IMG/VR virus record: IMGVR_UViG_3300035049_000578
Coordinates: 1 to 27,857 of that record
DNA from: a virus
Taxonomy: Duplodnaviria; Caudoviricetes
Strand: one strand, 5' to 3'
Length of the DNA stretch: 27,857 bases
The notes under the pieces are model-generated. The model was not told the origin of the DNA. It made no database searches and was given only the letters and a program-made list of their open reading frames with translations. Positions within the stretch are counted from its first letter, which is position 1. Every line of letters starts with the position of its first letter. Of the stretch, positions 16,283 through 26,899 are shown one piece after another. Made by a program: the position numbers and the translations under genes.

Positions 16283-16558
16283 TTATTGCTGGACCCAAAT
16301 CCGTGACAACGGGAACTTAACCCTGCAAAACACACAACAAAGCGGCCTTCCTTCCGGGCCTTCGGTCTCTTCGTTCGTCTCTCCGCACTCAGGACACACC
16401 CATTGCCAATAACTCACTTTTTTTACAAAAACCTCTTTCTCCTCTTTATCGTGAGGATTTCTGCCTGTGATCGTGTCTGCACCCGTTAACCACTTCACCC
16501 GGCTGGATGAAATCTTGCAGCCGTCGTCAGTTTCTGATTGTAAAGCCTCTCTTAACAT
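16283..16558 (-). CDS. Zinc-ribbon protein containing a 31-aa copy of a helicase segment
   Basis: AGGGGG RBS; W.CPECG..N and C..C; residues 8-38 identical to the helicase. Confidence 0.75.
   Translation of the reverse strand: MLREALQSETDDGCKISSSRVKWLTGADTITGRNPHDKEEKEVFVKKVSYWQWVCPECGETNEETEGPEGRPLCCVFCRVKFPLSRIWVQQ
16445..16538. repeat. 94-bp exact direct repeat, copy 1
   Basis: Identical to 21035-21128 by direct comparison. Confidence 0.97.
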
Positions 16559-18589: not shown

Positions 18590-18839
18590 GATCCTCCCTT
18601 TTTTGTAACCTGCCAGAATAACAAGTGGATTCATTAAGAATGATATGCTGTTAAGCCAAGGGAGGATTGTTGTAACAAATTTCTTATATTTTTTTCTTAA
18701 ATAATTTTTCGTTTTTTCTTGTAATAATCCTCCCATCTTCCATAAGAAAAAAATAACAAATAAAAACAAAGAATTATAAGCAGAAGATAGGCAAAACGTC
18801 TGCCCCTCGATCCTCCCTGAAAAGCTGTTAATCCTCCCT
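18590..18839. repeat. AT-rich origin-like region with five RATCCTCCCW boxes
   Basis: Copies at 18590, 18726, 18809, 18830 and inverted at 18659. Confidence 0.65.
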
Positions 18840-20213: not shown

Positions 20214-20481
20214 GGGATAATGCACGGGATAAAGAAACAACGCTTTTTTGTTTTTCCCGTTTGTTTTAACTCTTTGTTTTTATTCTTTATTTTATTTTCA
20301 ATGGGATAATGGGAGTGAAATCTATAGAAAAAAGTAAAAATAAAATAGAAAAAAAATATTCTAATATTATTGCGTTTTTCCTCCCACGCTCCCGACATGG
20401 CTATCCCTCTGCTTAATCTTTAATGTTTTTGGTAGGTTAAAAATCCACGGGACTATTAAAAGCCGCTTAAAATTAGTCCCG
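20214..20481. repeat. Second AT-rich origin-like region with GGGATA-type boxes
   Basis: GGGATA at 20214, 20226, 20303, inverted at 20402; CGGGACTA/TAGTCCCG inverted pair at 20448-20481. Confidence 0.55.
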
Positions 20482-20485
20482 CTCT

Positions 20486-22060
20486 TTACAGCTCATCTTC
20501 CCGCAACCCGACGCCTATGTATTTAATGTTGCTTGCCTTGACCTTCTCAAACCGCGCTGAAAACCACTGCCCAAAGCGTTTCTTTTTGGGCACCCTGTTT
20601 GACACGTTCTCTCGCCACCACTCATCAAATTTTTCGTACACCGCCGCCGCTGAAACGTGGAATCCTTCACCAACTACACAGCACTCGCTTATAAAATCTC
20701 CGACAGAATCCTCGTCCTGCCGGTACTCCTGGACAGCCTCTTTCACAGCCGCAGGCTGAATTAATTTGTGCCCTGCTTTTTGCCACTCCAGACACCCCTT
20801 TACAAACCAAGCCAGGATACTGGAATATACGGCCTCCAGTTTTTTAGGCAATCCGGGGTCTGCATCTCTTTCATGCTTGGCAAGTTCTTGATCCGGCGTC
20901 TGCCTTATAATAAAGGATACATCAAAAGGAAAAACGATCATGCGCCGCCAAAACGCGAAATCATCTGCCGACGCATGTGGCTTATGGTTGGTCAGGAGCA
21001 TCAATGTATGGGTAGGTTCAAAAGATACTTCATATTTATCGTGAGGATTTCTGCCTGTGATCGTGTCTGCACCCGTTAACCACTTCACCCGGCTGGATGA
21101 AATCTTGCAGCCGTCGTCAGTTTCTGATGCAAATGCCATTCTCAACCCGCGCAGCGCCATGATATCAGGTGTCGGGCCGGCAGAACTCGCCACCCTGTTC
21201 TGGTCTAAAAGCATCTCAGACCGTATGGACCCGGCCAGCGGCCCGAGAATATCCGAGATGGCCTTCACAATCATTGACTTTCCGTTTGCACCTCTCCCGG
21301 TCATGACAATAAAAACCGCCTGCATCACCTTACCAACCATAGCAAACCCACAGACCAGCCGGAAAAAATCAACGAGATCCTGACGACCATCAAAAATTTC
21401 CAGCAGCGCCCCCTCCCACACAGACATATCAGAAAAGATCCCGTCCTCCGGGAATGCTACCGGGCTGGCTTTCAACAGGTAATCTTTCTGTCTGCCGGGC
21501 TCCAGTTCGCCGGTCTTCAGGTTGACAACACCATTTGCGCAAGGCAAAAGCCATGGATTTTGATCAATCTCATCGCCGGCAATGGCAATCGGTTCCTTGC
21601 TTGTATGAGCAAACAAGAGGCAGTTGCTCCGACGGTTGCTCGACCGCAGCAAAGACACTCTTTTGTTTATTTGATCCCGGGTATACTTCAGAGAGCCAGC
21701 ATCTTTATTCTCAGCTTCCAGGTCAGATATTTGTTTTGACAGTCTTTTTGCCTCGTCCTGGTAAACCAGAGCAACTCCGTCCACTGACGCCGCAGCATCA
21801 TCCATCCTGTCCACAATCCAGTGATGACCAGCCCACCGAAGCCAGCAGTTCATTGATTTGTTGAAAATAAAGTCATCACGGTACAACCGCTTAAACAGAT
21901 CCCCGTCACCCAGTTCATTATTCAACAGACACTGCCTGATGAAATCAGAATCCAGGTCCGGAGGCCCTGTGCCGCCGCTGCTTTCGTCGGCATCCTTCAC
22001 CCGGCGTCCGACCTGCTCCCGGATGTCTTTGATATCAACCATATTGCCCATCACTAACAA
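20486..22060 (-). CDS. P4-family/D5-like SF3 helicase
   Basis: D5_N region (NGVVNLKTG), Walker A G.GANGKS, ASE, K.LTG.D.I..R, TNHKP, WRR, C-terminal winged helix. Confidence 0.95.
   Translation of the reverse strand: MLVMGNMVDIKDIREQVGRRVKDADESSGGTGPPDLDSDFIRQCLLNNELGDGDLFKRLYRDDFIFNKSMNCWLRWAGHHWIVDRMDDAAASVDGVALVYQDEAKRLSKQISDLEAENKDAGSLKYTRDQINKRVSLLRSSNRRSNCLLFAHTSKEPIAIAGDEIDQNPWLLPCANGVVNLKTGELEPGRQKDYLLKASPVAFPEDGIFSDMSVWEGALLEIFDGRQDLVDFFRLVCGFAMVGKVMQAVFIVMTGRGANGKSMIVKAISDILGPLAGSIRSEMLLDQNRVASSAGPTPDIMALRGLRMAFASETDDGCKISSSRVKWLTGADTITGRNPHDKYEVSFEPTHTLMLLTNHKPHASADDFAFWRRMIVFPFDVSFIIRQTPDQELAKHERDADPGLPKKLEAVYSSILAWFVKGCLEWQKAGHKLIQPAAVKEAVQEYRQDEDSVGDFISECCVVGEGFHVSAAAVYEKFDEWWRENVSNRVPKKKRFGQWFSARFEKVKASNIKYIGVGLREDEL
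21035..21128. repeat. 94-bp exact direct repeat, copy 2 (native, inside helicase)
   Basis: Identical to 16445-16538. Confidence 0.97.
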
Positions 22061-22134: not shown

Positions 22135-22182
22135 TCTCGCGCTCATCTGCACCTCAACGGAAAGAGTCCCAGAAGGACCCGT
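22135..22182 (-). other. Putative cos-like packaging site
   Basis: GGGTCCT (the lambda cosQ sequence) followed 32 nt later by CGCG, in a noncoding gap; phage has a GpA terminase. Confidence 0.45.
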
Positions 22183-23254: not shown

Positions 23255-23440
23255 TTACAGCTTCTGCTGTAGCTCATGGGCCAGGCCGTAAGACGCGCCC
23301 ATGAATAACAATAATCCGCCAGTTGACAAATATATTTGGTACTCTATAAGATCACATGCGACTTCAGCCCCGGCCAGAACAAGACCAGCACCCCACAAGA
23401 CCGCATAAAACATCGCTTTGACACCCATTCCTAAAAACAT
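23255..23440 (-). CDS. Small two-helix membrane protein
   Basis: Two hydrophobic segments, operon orientation; start uncertain. Confidence 0.6.
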   Translation of the reverse strand: MFLGMGVKAMFYAVLWGAGLVLAGAEVACDLIEYQIYLSTGGLLLFMGASYGLAHELQQKL

Positions 23441-23483
23441 CCTTTTGGGGCCGTTTCCGGCCCCGGTCTAAGGAGAGAAAGAT

Positions 23484-23515
23484 ATTGACCGCCACAGCCA
23501 ATCACTCTCTTTCCT
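23484..23515. repeat. 32-bp direct repeat copy A, inside a hairpin (23471-23515)
   Basis: ATTGACCGCCACAGCCAATCACTCTCTTTCCT, 30/32 identical to 25225-25256. Confidence 0.9.
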
Positions 23516-23609
23516 GTTGGTTAAATATTACTTATTATTCAGCATTAAGGACTCATCAAAGTCCTGTTCAATTTCTTCAAACAGCGCCCGTTTTGCGGAC
23601 AGTTTTTGT

Positions 23610-23816
23610 TCATCTGTCCATGTCGTATTTTTTCTGATCACGGCCATAAGAATCCTGGTAAAAGATCGGCCGAAAATTCAGCCGATCTTTTTCGTCATCC
23701 TTAATCAGATTTTCTATTTTCTGTATGACGTTTTTATGTTGCTTGCCAAACTTATCAGCCACGGTCAAAGAGTCTGTAAGCACTGTTTGTTTTTTAGTGG
23801 TAACAAGGTCCATCAT
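23610..23816 (-). pseudogene. rha: Truncated Rha-family regulator
   Basis: DSL.VA..FGK.HKNV...I and Y.D..GR....Y.MDR, then a stop where DGF..L.MGFTG normally follows. Confidence 0.75.
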
Positions 23817-24040
23817 GCAACCTCCTCGGCCCGAAGGCTTGCAAACGCTTCTCGAAGTTGGTCCGGCGTGGCGTTTTTCCAGCCCTGGACATCCATCCAG
23901 TGGAACTCAGCGGCCAGAGAGCAAGCAAAAGGCCAGGACACAGCCTCTTTGCCGTTTAACAGCAAACTAATCTTAGCTTGGCTTATTTTGCTGTCATGTT
24001 TTGCCTTAAAATATTTAGCTATTTCAATTTGAGTCATCAT
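23813..24040 (-). CDS. Cro-like HTH regulator
   Basis: MTQ.EIA....ISQA.IS.LLNG; divergent from the repressor. Confidence 0.8.
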   Translation of the reverse strand: MMTQIEIAKYFKAKHDSKISQAKISLLLNGKEAVSWPFACSLAAEFHWMDVQGWKNATPDQLREAFASLRAEEVA

Positions 24041-24046
24041 GGCTAT

Positions 24047-24075
24047 AGCATATTTGTAGCACGAATTGTTGTCAA
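24047..24075 (-). promoter_or_regulatory. Lytic early promoter
   Basis: TTGACA-17 bp-TATGCT. Confidence 0.8.
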
Positions 24076-24140
24076 GCAAAAAATATTATAAAAACCAATA
24101 ATTTTTTATAAAGATATAGATATTCAACAAATATGAGGTG

Positions 24141-24169
24141 TTGAGAGACTTTTAATGGTGTAGTATTTT
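24141..24169 (+). promoter_or_regulatory. Repressor promoter
   Basis: TTGAGA-17 bp-TATTTT. Confidence 0.55.
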
Positions 24170-24175
24170 ATTAAG

Positions 24176-24761
24176 ATGGAAGATCTAATGGAAAATAAAA
24201 ATAAAATATTTGCAATTGGTATAGATAAAATACGTCGAAATAAAAATTGGACACAGAAAAACCTGGCTTCCAAAATAAAAGACGGAAAAAGGGGAACTGT
24301 TTCAAGTTGGCTTTGCTGCAGGACTAAGCTCCCAGAAGAAAGGTTTGAAGAATTTGCATCCATATTCAATACCACCGTAGACGCTATCCTTATGATTGGC
24401 CGGGAAGAAATATCAAAAAAAGAAGGATTCAAAGCCAGGGAATCAGACATCGAAAAAAAGACTTGCTGAAATTGAAAAAAAAATAAGCAACAAAGCCCAG
24501 CAACCGGCAGACATTACCACTGAACGCCACCGGCAAACCATTGAACAATTCCAAGATAAAATACTCGCCCTTGAAATAAATATAGAACTTGTAAAACTTG
24601 AACAGCTCGATAAGGGCCAATTAAAGGAAATACTTGGAATAATAAAAGATAGGAAATTTAGGTTAGAACAAGAATCACAAAAAAAAGAACCGGCATCAAA
24701 CGGGGAAAATAGGTGTCTCATCATACCATTCCCGCTTACCAAGGGCGGGTTGATTGAATAG
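24176..24761 (+). pseudogene. XRE-family HTH phage repressor, split by one extra A in an A7 run
   Basis: WTQKNLA...TVSSW HTH; removing one A at 24453-24459 joins the two track ORFs as ...SDIEKRLAEIEKK... Confidence 0.75.
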
Positions 24762-24788
24762 TTTTCAATCTTTCAAAGGGGAATTATT

Positions 24789-25170
24789 ATGAAAAAAATC
24801 TTGATCGCGTTGTCCATTCTGGTTGCCTTTTCTACATCCGCCTGGGCGGGCAGCTTAACGGCTTCCCAAAAAAAATGCAGTCCGATCCGCAAAACAATAC
24901 CTGTCCATGACCGGCTTTTCAAGGGCCGGATTAATCCAACAGCTTTCGGCAGATTTTGGTGACGGGTATTCTGTCCCTGATGCAACCGCCGCAGTAGACA
25001 GCATGGATGTAGACTGGAACGAGCAAGCAGCCCGTTCCGCAAAACAGTATATAGAAATGCAGGGCTTCTCATGCAAAGGGCTTGTTCAGCAGCTTTCATC
25101 AAGCGCCGGAGATAAATACACCGTGGATCAAGCGACCTATGGAGCCCGTAAAGTAGGGGTTTGTAAATAG
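24789..25170 (+). pseudogene. Ltp-family secreted superinfection-exclusion protein, split by one extra A in an A8 run
   Basis: Signal peptide MKKILIALSILVAFSTSAWA; removing one A at 24868-24875 gives QKNAVRSAKQYLSMTGFSR and two Ltp-type repeats (VDWNEQA..SAKQY, GFS..GL..QL). Confidence 0.85.
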
Positions 25171-25188
25171 ACAACAATTTTTTTCTGT

Positions 25189-25217
25189 TTGACAATGCAA
25201 AAATAATCTGCAATCCT
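25189..25217 (+). promoter_or_regulatory. Promoter for the structured leader RNA / rightward early operon
   Basis: TTGACA-17 bp-AATCCT with TGn extension; -10 is imperfect. Confidence 0.6.
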
Positions 25218-25223
25218 ATGCAC

Positions 25224-25331
25224 GATTGACCGCCACAACCAATCACTCTTTTTCCTTGCAACCGCCAGGAGGTAAGGATGAGAGAACATCACAGCAAAAC
25301 CCGTGTCATAATCAATGACAACGGGTTTTTT
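25224..25331 (+). ncRNA. Putative three-hairpin leader/small RNA containing repeat copy B (25225-25256)
   Basis: Hairpin GATTG/CAATC, hairpin 25246-25284, terminator hairpin; both first loops carry ACCGCCA. Confidence 0.65.
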
Positions 25332-25391
25332 GTATTCACACTCCTATCCCCCGCCTCCCTTCTTTTTAAAGGAGGATATCTGTGGACATAA
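25278..25391 (+). CDS. 37-aa leader peptide MREHHSKTRVIINDNGFFVFTLLSPASLLFKGGYLWT
   Basis: AGGAGG 5 nt before ATG; spans the terminator and overlaps the GTG of the next gene. Confidence 0.5.
   Translation: MREHHSKTRVIINDNGFFVFTLLSPASLLFKGGYLWT
25296..25331 (+). terminator. Intrinsic terminator
   Basis: AAAACCCGTGTCAT-AATCA-ATGACAACGGGTTTTTT stem with U-tract. Confidence 0.8.
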
Positions 25392-26899
25392 TCATAGATG
25401 CAGAAACCACCGGGACAAAGCAAAAAGACCAAGTCATTGAGCTGGCTATCATCAACGCAGAGACGGCAGAAACCATCTTCAACAGGCGCATGAAGCCCAC
25501 AGTTGAAATCAACCCAGAAGCCGCCGCCGTCCACGGAATTCATGAAAAATATCTCTCCGGGTGCAGCACATGGATGGATTATCACGCCCACATCATGGGT
25601 ATCATCAGGCATGCCAAATTAGTTATAGCGTACAACTCAAGCTTTGATACCCGGATCATAGAGCAAACGGCCAGGGCCTTTAATTGTTTTTGGCCCCGTG
25701 CCGGAATACGGCACCTTTGCGAAAACCTGGACAATGTAAATCCACGGGCATTGTTCCCCCAAGGAAGAATCAATCTCCTGGTAGCCTCTCCGGAATGCAC
25801 CCACCACAGCAATGCCAGGGGTGGTGTGCCCTGTTCTGATCAATCCAGGGCAACGGCCTGGAGGGTGGTGGACTGGGCGGCCGCCATCTACATTGATAAT
25901 ATCCTTATTGAAAATGTTCCGGAGTTTCAATCCTGGGGACCACTTGGTGCCGATGGAAAGCCGATGAAATCAAAAAAAGGGGCGACATTCCAGGCTTTTA
26001 AGATTGCCCTTGAATCACTTGGTTACCGGGTTGATTATCGGGTTTTAAATGCGGCCGACTATGGCGACCCAACCTGCCGGAAACGATTTTTCCTAATTGC
26101 GCGCCGCGGTAACAAGCGAGTCCACTGGCCTGAACAGACACATGCAGAGCATGCCTGCCGGGATATGTTCGGGCACGAGACAAAACCATGGGTACCGGCC
26201 AGGAAAATTATTGATTGGAACATTGAAGGGCAGTCAATTTTTAACCGGAAAAAACCGCTGGCGAAAAAAACTTTGGCCCGTATTGAATATGGGCTTCGAA
26301 AGTTTGGCGGAGAGGACTTCTTGGTTAAATTTTTCGGCACCGGCCAGGGTGTCTCTCTGGATAAACCCATGGACACCGTTACGACCAGCGGGAACCACCA
26401 TGGTCTGGTTCAGCCTTTTGTCACTATCATGAAGGGTATGAGTAAAACCCGGGGCGTGGACAAGCCTTTGCCAACACTCACAACGAAACAACACATATAG
26501 CTTTGTGAATCATTCCTGATTGACCTGAATTATTCCCATGCTGGTCCTGCTCGAGTACGCTCCCTGGCCCGGCCGGCACCGACCGATGTCACTCAGCAGA
26601 ATTACGCCCTGATCCATGCACACCTGATTAAATATTTTGGTACCGGCATGGCCCAGAGCGTTGATAAGCCATTGGATACGGTCACCACAAAGGACCGGTT
26701 CGGCCTGGTAGAAATTTTTGAGAAAACCCCTGGGCTGGATATCCGGTTACGTATGCTGCAGCCGCATGAGCTGGCCAAGGCCCAGTCCTTCCCGGATGAT
26801 TACAAGTTCTGCGGGGATAAGGGGGAGATTGTTAAGCAGATTGGGAATGCAGTGCCAGGGAAAATAGCCGCGGCTTTATGCCGGGAACTTATAACGTAA
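25382..26899 (+). pseudogene. Fusion of truncated DEDDh 3'-5' exonuclease and N-truncated C5 cytosine methyltransferase, with an in-frame TAG
   Basis: DAETTG and AYNSSFD then SPECT, ENV, RKR; no ExoIII or FxGxG motif; TAG at 26498-26500 followed in frame by motifs IX/X (RML.PHEL..AQ.FP, QIGNAVP). Confidence 0.85.

Follow-up and report, generated by a model that had tools for sequence, protein, structure and literature searches.

Can the two divergent early operons of a temperate phage be coupled by RNA pairing? The question is raised by a 32-nt direct repeat flanking the cro-cI region in the IMG/VR virus record IMGVR_UViG_3300035049_000578, a linear record analysed here over its whole length of 27,857 nt (the window). 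An earlier note on this DNA had proposed that the repeat copy in the leftward cro operon (copy A) and the copy at the 5' end of a rightward transcript (copy B) form a switch. Judged from the sequences of the window and of a second phage, the two copies are a real, conserved and co-varying RNA pair, which is not in Rfam. That the lytic mRNA carrying copy A opens the second early operon via leader RNA B is the reading towards which we lean, if only slightly. The two relatives compared below are labelled G006 (locus L036) and G001 (locus L018).

Copies A and B and the leader RNA

The two copies (23484-23515 and 25225-25256) are spaced by 1741 nt and identical at 30/32 positions, as the earlier note had described them, and in a self-BLAST the repeat scores 50 bits, compared with a maximum of 37.4 in 40 dinucleotide shuffles of the window. 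The proposed complementarity holds as well: minus-strand RNA of copy A and plus-strand RNA of copy B pair at 31/32 positions, with a duplex energy of -53.4 kcal/mol. In a duplex scan, the next best RNA target in the window reaches -33 to -39 kcal/mol, as against -54 kcal/mol for A:B. On the plus strand near copy B, a complement of the 7-nt seed is absent; only copy A, on the opposite strand, pairs strongly with it. The elements on the two sides are:

23255-23444, minus strand: ribosome site (23438-23444) and 57-aa hydrophobic open reading frame (ORF; ATG at 23428), the first gene after copy A; no PHROG match, not conserved in G006
23447-23464, minus strand: GC-rich hairpin with a GAAA loop between copy A and the next ribosome site; G006 has a GC hairpin of different sequence at the same position
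23469-23483, minus strand: pyrimidine-rich 3' arm of hairpin A, which by pairing computation can fold onto the next ribosome site once A is bound
23484-23515, minus strand: copy A, predicted to be the trigger, lying between genes of the cro operon and forming the loop and 5' arm of hairpin A; counterpart L036:904-940
25189-25217, plus strand: predicted promoter P-B (TTGACA, 17 nt, extended -10) with predicted start at G25224; 25/36 positions identical in G006, versus 15/60 just upstream
25224-25244, plus strand: hairpin 1 of B, with an open 11-nt loop carrying an invariant 9-nt seed; by its fold, loop opening costs 0.03 kcal/mol
25225-25256, plus strand: copy B, the target segment, comprising hairpin 1, a linker and the 5' arm of hairpin 2; counterpart L036:3997-4034
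25246-25284, plus strand: hairpin 2 of B, predicted from its fold to lock the leader ribosome site; it buries the AUG at 25278 and encloses AGGAGG (25267-25272)
25278-25391, plus strand: 37-codon leader ORF, running through the terminator and overlapping the GTG of the next gene at 25382; from translation, with the frame open in G006 too
25296-25331, plus strand: predicted intrinsic terminator with a U-run, giving a short RNA of about 108 nt; from its fold, kept in G006 with a double change
25338-25375, plus strand: post-terminator stretch with a pyrimidine tract and the next gene's ribosome site; by computation, the tract can pair with this downstream site or with the freed leader site

The folding z of B is -4.2 on the plus strand and +0.45 on the minus strand for 25224-25290, and -4.2 and -6.0 over the two plus-strand stretches tested. 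Both the hairpin over the leader start and the 37-codon ORF through the terminator, two central claims of the earlier note, were recovered at 25246-25284 and 25278-25391. Its third structural claim, that both hairpins expose complementary loops, stands for B, the loop of which is open, and only in part for A. In the minimum-energy fold in the window, the loop of A is mostly closed by G-U pairs, which leaves a 3-nt loop and an opening cost of 7.3 kcal/mol. Copy A has a folding z of -3.8 on the minus strand and -2.2 on the plus strand.

The promoter and the terminator, both part of the earlier proposal, are less clear-cut. Neither was listed by the consensus scan, and the -10 element of P-B matches at 3/6 positions only. 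As the scan did not list P-B, the promoter call rests on its conservation in G006, while the terminator has a fold with a U-run that is kept there. A repressor operator at P-B was considered and rejected: comparing P-B with the cro-cI gap, no operator-like match was found, 11/60 and 60/60 shuffles being as good. The Rfam search that had been suggested gave no gathering-score match in the window, and searches around the elements were likewise empty with limits of E <= 10 and E <= 5.

From the leader AUG to the terminator there are 18 nt in the window and 17 nt in G006. The leader frame is open through the terminator in both phages (chance in shuffles, 0.19 and 0.13), and the other two frames contain 1-3 stops. 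The leader of the window overlaps the next start; that of G006 continues in frame into the next gene, and this gene has a site of its own locked by a hairpin. The post-terminator tract is computed to form duplexes with the leader site (-18.8 kcal/mol in the window, -21.7 in G006) and with the downstream site (-12.2 and -13.6 kcal/mol), and could either relay the signal or damp it. The 7-nt seed is repeated in the loop of hairpin 2, at 25261-25267 directly before the AGGAGG, and this second copy is invariant in G006 (L036:4038-4044). Possible roles for it are a second docking site for A, a lock on the Shine-Dalgarno (SD) sequence, or a protein motif. Neither it nor the post-terminator tract is mentioned in the earlier note.

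The pair in a second phage and the computed effect of pairing

G006 was found with a pattern built from the two seeds of B and the SD sequence, which gave 12 matches in viral contigs, one of them a homolog. Copy A, the promoter, the terminator and the layout were all outside this pattern. The copy A of G006 is in the leftward operon, behind cro and another gene, at a distance of 3093 bases from B (1741 in the window). The immunity genes around the pair are different: the cro of G006, a helix-turn-helix (HTH) protein, does not align with that of the window, the cI proteins share 29% identity over 55 aa, and the cargo genes are others. At the DNA level, the two phages resemble each other in five stretches only, one of which is B (76.6% over 137 nt).

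Within each phage the copies resemble each other (30/32 in the window, 33/38 in G006) more than copies with the same role do between the phages (26/37 and 28/38), and a 5-6-nt insertion is common to both copies of G006. Hence, the co-conservation on which the earlier note had made its proposal depend is found, with A and B in the same places and changing together. All 31 predicted pairs of B are kept in G006, with two double changes, six single changes and none broken; two sequences cannot give statistical covariation. The folding z of B in G006 is -5.05 on the plus strand. In both phages, the A:B duplex is interrupted at the same loop positions (14-15), beside the invariant 9-bp seed, the loop-loop seed duplex amounts to about -17 kcal/mol, and similarity between the copies ends at the ends of the pairing segments.

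Folding computations were used to describe what pairing would do to the leader. Over four nascent lengths, the cost of opening the leader ribosome site is 17.2-17.9 kcal/mol free and 4.1-6.7 kcal/mol bound in the window, and 14.1-17.8 and 4.0-4.6 kcal/mol, respectively, in G006. Both cognate co-folds open hairpin 2, with net energies of -22 and -30 kcal/mol, whereas neither of the two cross-phage co-folds does, pairing there being confined to the 5' end. In silico, therefore, the trigger exposes a hairpin-locked ribosome site in a partner-specific way. The terminator stays folded in the A-bound folds, and an alternative antiterminator helix was rejected for this reason.

On the side of copy A, binding of B is computed to shift the downstream pairing of the 3' arm of hairpin A from 0.03 to 0.76 in the window and from 0.66 to 0.80 in G006. 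In both cognate co-folds the released arm bridges the GC hairpin and pairs with the next ribosome site. The opening cost of this lytic ribosome site changes by 0-2 kcal/mol, depending on the stretch folded. As the shift in G006 is small and the energy change only 0-2 kcal/mol, silencing of the lytic operon by B is weakly supported by these models.

Further homologs were sought in several ways. The exact 23-base pattern had no match in viral and metagenome contigs, a 19-base pattern gave seven matches in GTDB genomes without a homolog (20-23-nt matches only), and a shared-core pattern returned four rows, two from the G006 contig and two by chance. Of five matches to a gapped pattern in metagenomes, one was the same G006 contig and four were chance. 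Above 23 bits, a two-sequence covariance model searched over 40 sources recovered just its two training sequences, and BLAST searches with the two copies gave no meaningful match among phages and plasmids in GenBank. Anchoring on proteins yielded one locus for cro, none for the exonuclease, and 93 homologs without context for the cI C-terminal part; anchoring on the helicase gave eight loci, but seven stop no more than about 1.2 kb upstream of this gene and are hence uninformative for the region.

The other relative, G001, has a cro/cI type as in the window and neither copy; downstream of its cI come two cargo genes and then the integrase, and a second early operon is absent from this place. 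On its minus strand, L018:5353-5583 holds a 76-codon ORF with a strong SD sequence, antisense inside the cro operon and over a terminator-like hairpin that recurs in G006 (825-860). Pieces resembling the rightward operon of the window, among them a 130-nt stretch of 99% identity, occur elsewhere in G001 (L018:14540-16600), after the terminase and an Ogr-like gene.

The surrounding prophage and the guarded operon

The minus strand of the window carries P2-like tail genes, a lambda-like portal and terminase, a primase and a D5 helicase (Pfam/PHROG annotation). Around the pair, the following genes were placed:

23528-23647, minus strand: 39-codon ORF, a putative gene from translation, stopping 13 nt before copy A
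23610-23816, minus strand: truncated Rha-family gene (PF09669, positions 1-60 of 91), containing a 15-bp inverted repeat at 23660-23691
23813-24040, minus strand: cro-like gene of 75 aa, by its position the first of the leftward (lytic) operon; 61% identity to the cro-position gene of L018
24047-24075, minus strand: candidate lytic promoter P-cro, which would transcribe copy A; 10/12 in the consensus scan, with an 11/12 site at the same place before the cro of G006
24176-24761, plus strand: cI-like repressor, frameshifted in an A-run near 24454-24461; PHROG repressor families, intact 168-aa homolog in L018
24789-25170, plus strand: Ltp-family superinfection-exclusion lipoprotein, frameshifted, cargo between cI and B; PF07553, phrog_15667
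25382-26899, plus strand: first guarded genes, a 3'-5' exonuclease joined through a deletion to a disrupted C5 methyltransferase; PF00929, PF00145

The cro-like ORF of the window has no Pfam or PHROG match. As named homologs of the AAA_28 protein and the cro-position protein come from Desulfobacula and Desulfobacter, we infer a sulfate reducer of the Desulfobacteraceae as host. The sequencing runs containing DNA of the window are oil-field metagenomes, and no RNA run was among those listed.

Decay of the prophage shows in several genes: frameshifts in A-runs interrupt both cI and the Ltp gene, Rha has lost part of its length, and the exonuclease is fused to the broken methyltransferase. Contigs of sequencing runs X1 and X6, which may include the source sample, carry the same letters as the window at the frameshifts. 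Both shifts lie in runs of eight A (24454-24461 in cI, about 24868-24875 in the Ltp gene), and decay and slippage-type switching both fit them. Contigs of runs X7 and X10, from one study, contain the cro side with copy A unchanged and share a loose end at 24383, inside cI; having zero cover of 24548-26115 and no contig bridging the gap, they cannot show that A exists without B.

In G006, the counterpart of the broken methyltransferase is intact (524 aa; DNA identity 81-87%). The operon there, with gaps of at most 70 nt, consists of the leader, the C5 methyltransferase, DUF5131, a 90-aa gene and an integrase split by an insertion sequence (IS) element. Atlas look-alikes of the 90-aa gene are of the HTH_17/AlpA type (0.92), and it has no Pfam or PHROG match; that it encodes a xis-like excisionase is a lead only. 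The xis-int endpoint is taken from G006 only, and the window stops before any integrase. Pfam/PHROG annotation lists no N-like gene.

Several other features of this DNA were recorded. A 112-nt direct repeat (105/112; 16445-16556 and 21035-21146), in which a piece of the helicase gene is duplicated in a small ORF before the terminase, is probably a rearrangement scar. The primase gene is flanked by an imperfect, AT-rich inverted repeat of 96 nt (72%; 18686-18779 and 20264-20359). A G-rich run lies near 22150, and 6/8 helicase-bearing viral loci (L011-L017) stop 170-450 bases upstream of the matched helicase stretch, which suggests a hard-to-assemble element such as an origin. A promoter-like site on the plus strand (23323-23352), antisense to the cro operon, together with a bidirectional terminator-like hairpin in the Rha fragment (23660-23691), could give a 340-nt cis-antisense RNA across copy A; this arrangement is not evidently conserved in G006. 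In G006 itself, the GC hairpin and ribosome site after A are duplicated (L036:359-405 and 843-889), as is the start of the AAA_28 gene (714-788 and 2044-2118), both duplications lying around an inserted 117-aa ORF.

A candidate switch, its rivals and known systems

In the switch that we propose, copy A, as part of the cro operon, would be transcribed only with the repressor off. P-B is taken to be outside repressor control, because it is common to phages with different repressors and no operator-like match was found; a lysogen would accordingly make the terminated RNA of 108-113 nt. Upon meeting the lytic mRNA, the 9-bp seed would form on the open loop of B and, as computed, extend to 31-35 bp, so that hairpin 2 opens. 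A ribosome on the freed leader, 17-18 nt before the terminator or about one ribosome footprint away, would block the terminator and, moving on, melt the hairpin that covers the next ribosome site. Should pairing come too late for this, the same event may instead turn on the translation of leaky read-through RNA, as with IsrK. Accumulated short B RNA would absorb leaky A and thereby set a threshold. As the guarded operon holds a methyltransferase and, in G006, a xis-like gene and an integrase, the switch would do the work of lambda O-L plus N for a promoter that is separated from the operators by cI and cargo.

Of the earlier note's claim that pairing frees the leader start and lets transcription pass, the first half gains support from the covarying copies and by a computed drop in the opening cost with the cognate partner only; the sign of the regulation and the read-through are what we infer. 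Put in full, a natural toehold switch would replace N, with the cro mRNA triggering the xis-int leader, a ribosome carrying transcription through the terminator, and the same duplex shutting the next lytic ribosome site, the whole being reciprocal, phage-specific and thresholded. We advance this extended model tentatively and rate its chances as somewhat short of even.

Several points weigh against activation of the leader by copy A. The transcript, its start and its end are all predicted from sequence, and the evidence comes from only two independent phages, in one of which, G006, the seed and SD sequence of B are conserved by hit selection. Opening the loop of A is costly in the window, and hairpin A of G006 is weak (z -0.67). 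The polarity of the G-U pairs gives no support to the proposed strands in the window (-53.4 versus -53.9 kcal/mol) and only mild support in G006 (-54.7 versus -50.3 kcal/mol); as proof of the strand it was rejected. In long read-through RNA, the freed leader site can be re-captured by the post-terminator tract, with a bound cost of 13-15 kcal/mol. For antitermination, A would have to pair and a ribosome to load in the time taken to transcribe about 75 nt. Finally, the prophage is decayed and carries another, longer duplication, the 112-nt repeat.

The pair could also act in the opposite direction, as the earlier note had considered: the short terminated B would mainly serve immunity or safety, by silencing the part of the lytic operon downstream of A, with its replication genes, either via the 3' arm on the ribosome site or via RNase III, and the leader ORF would be secondary. 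B indeed has its own promoter and terminator, like OrzO and IstR-1 (PMC3919570), and the 3' arm of A reaches the next ribosome site in both cognate co-folds, with a large shift in the window. In G006, however, this arm is already paired downstream without B, and the cost change is small and context-dependent, so that the in-silico support is mixed. Silencing also leaves unexplained that the co-varying part is the arm locking the leader start of B, that the leader frame is open and that the distance to the terminator is conserved. We consider it unlikely as the main job, though it is the main rival.

A different explanation places the repeat at the level of DNA, as a duplication scar with gene conversion, a module-exchange boundary or a protein site; B would then be an ordinary attenuated leader and the RNAs would remain unpaired in vivo. 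Other direct repeats do lie beside rearrangements, of 112 nt in the window and of 75 and 58 nt in G006, and the G-U polarity is not decisive. Such origins are nevertheless improbable, given that the repeat occupies the same two positions despite different immunity genes, that similarity stops at the ends of the pairing segments, that the copies differ at the same loop positions in both phages, and that the repeat is exactly toehold plus locking arm. Less probable still is that copy A is read on the plus strand from the antisense promoter at 23323-23352, as a second RNA with the loop of B, both binding one protein or a common target. The promoter-like site (10/12, 130 nt before A), the bidirectional hairpin that could end such an RNA, and the 7-nt seed occurring twice in B, which suits a repeated binding motif, speak for it. 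Against this, the site that G006 has at that place scores just 9/12, is unrelated in sequence and is no better than chance (12 such sites found, 9.6 expected), A of the window folds better on the minus strand, and no other strong target for either RNA was found in the window. The arrangement also recalls divergent type I toxin-antitoxin pairs, with B as antitoxin RNA and the 57-aa ORF after A as toxin: a direct repeat is read divergently, a small RNA has its own promoter and terminator (as in PMC3919570), and the ORF is hydrophobic (19-residue hydropathy 1.73). In G006, the gene after A encodes a 117-aa soluble protein (0.55), and A lies inside the cro operon in both phages. With no conserved toxin across the two phages, this candidate was rejected, and we give it hardly any chance.

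Among known systems, the antitermination of lambda (N/nut) and of HK022 (put) ties read-through of an early operon ending in xis-int to the lytic state, as the proposed switch would. It works through a protein or through RNA in cis, at sites of the same orientation on both transcripts; the two sites here are complementary as RNA, the copies being direct repeats on divergent operons rather than the same RNA sequence on both early transcripts, which would be inverted on the genome. CopA/CopT-type pairs, which are cis-encoded and fully complementary with two exposed loops, also differ, as A and B are separate loci with 1-2 mismatches, and the loop of B is open while that of A costs 3.5-7.3 kcal/mol to open.

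Phage RNA-RNA control of an early operon is exemplified by P1 C4/icd/ant. The P4 CI RNA (seqA/seqC) acts from within the same transcript and terminates (PMC4825925). As is proposed for the present element, CI and C4 act by RNA pairing at the 5' end of an early operon, with a short target motif that recurs, one copy lying at the ribosome site of a leader ORF, and with termination as output; they derive by cleavage from the very transcript that they regulate (inverted on the genome) and are repressors, whereas here the partner comes from the opposite operon, the repeat is direct and activation is predicted.

By analogy, the nearest natural case is IsrK of Gifsy-1. According to PMC4825925, IsrK/orf45/anrP has a short terminated and a read-through isoform, and a leader ORF that is coupled to the next gene has its ribosome site released by RNA pairing in trans. 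Both are thus prophage leaders with terminated and read-through forms in which RNA in trans frees the leader ribosome site, in our case by prediction. The activator of IsrK, according to the same text, is the short isoform of the same transcript, pairing within orf45, while the partner here is the divergent cro-operon mRNA, 1.7-3.1 kb away, and the leader ORF begins upstream of the terminator and runs across it. Tested against the CI/C4/IsrK group, the element has in silico the leader ORF with a sequestered ribosome site coupled to the next gene (2/2 phages); it lacks an Rfam match, and regulator and targets are not in one transcript.

The logic resembles RATEX and toehold devices, in which a trigger RNA opens a hairpin over ribosome site and start, and leader translation prevents termination (PMC13285474). 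Those devices are engineered, with ribosomes stalling on TnaC or TrpL in the same source, whereas here the system is natural and a hairpin loop would serve as toehold. A stalling motif was not identified in the leader; with 17-18 nt from AUG to terminator, the geometry would fit prevention of termination by leader translation. The zorO/OrzO, tisB/IstR-1 and shoB/OhsC pairs offer a direct repeat read divergently, a small RNA with its own promoter and terminator, and specificity from a variable stretch; they pair over 18-21 nt and repress a small toxin (PMC3919570). The present pair likewise has a divergent small RNA complementary to an untranslated region of its partner, but pairs over 31-35 bp, lacks a conserved hydrophobic toxin, and its small RNA is itself a leader with an ORF. 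On the tested features, the element would thus work like IsrK and a toehold switch, yet falls outside the CI/C4/IsrK, type I toxin-antitoxin and nut/put groups.

The sections of a 2025 phage small-RNA review (PMC12197685) and of PMC7067206 that were consulted describe no inter-operon RNA switch of such a layout. Full-text searches aimed at the layout found none either; older P1, P4 and N15 papers lay mostly outside their reach, so that absence from print is not established. The statement of the earlier note that no such phage switch had been described has hence survived these searches, although the parts are known, as far as the sources show, from the divergent pairs zorO/OrzO and tisB/IstR-1 and from leader activation by IsrK. 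In a targeted literature search, no work on RNA regulation in phages of sulfate reducers was among the matches listed.

Temperate phages must turn on excision and accessory early genes only after loss of the repressor. With cI and cargo between the operators and the second promoter, a link between them is needed, and the locus offers one made of RNA only, in which an mRNA would report the state of the repressor. If true, it would stand as the natural equivalent of the engineered toehold-switch and RATEX devices and as an RNA-only substitute for lambda's protein. It would provide two orthogonal natural pairs, the cross pairs being computed as non-triggering, that are small enough for E. coli, and it would open up RNA regulation in the phages of sulfate reducers.

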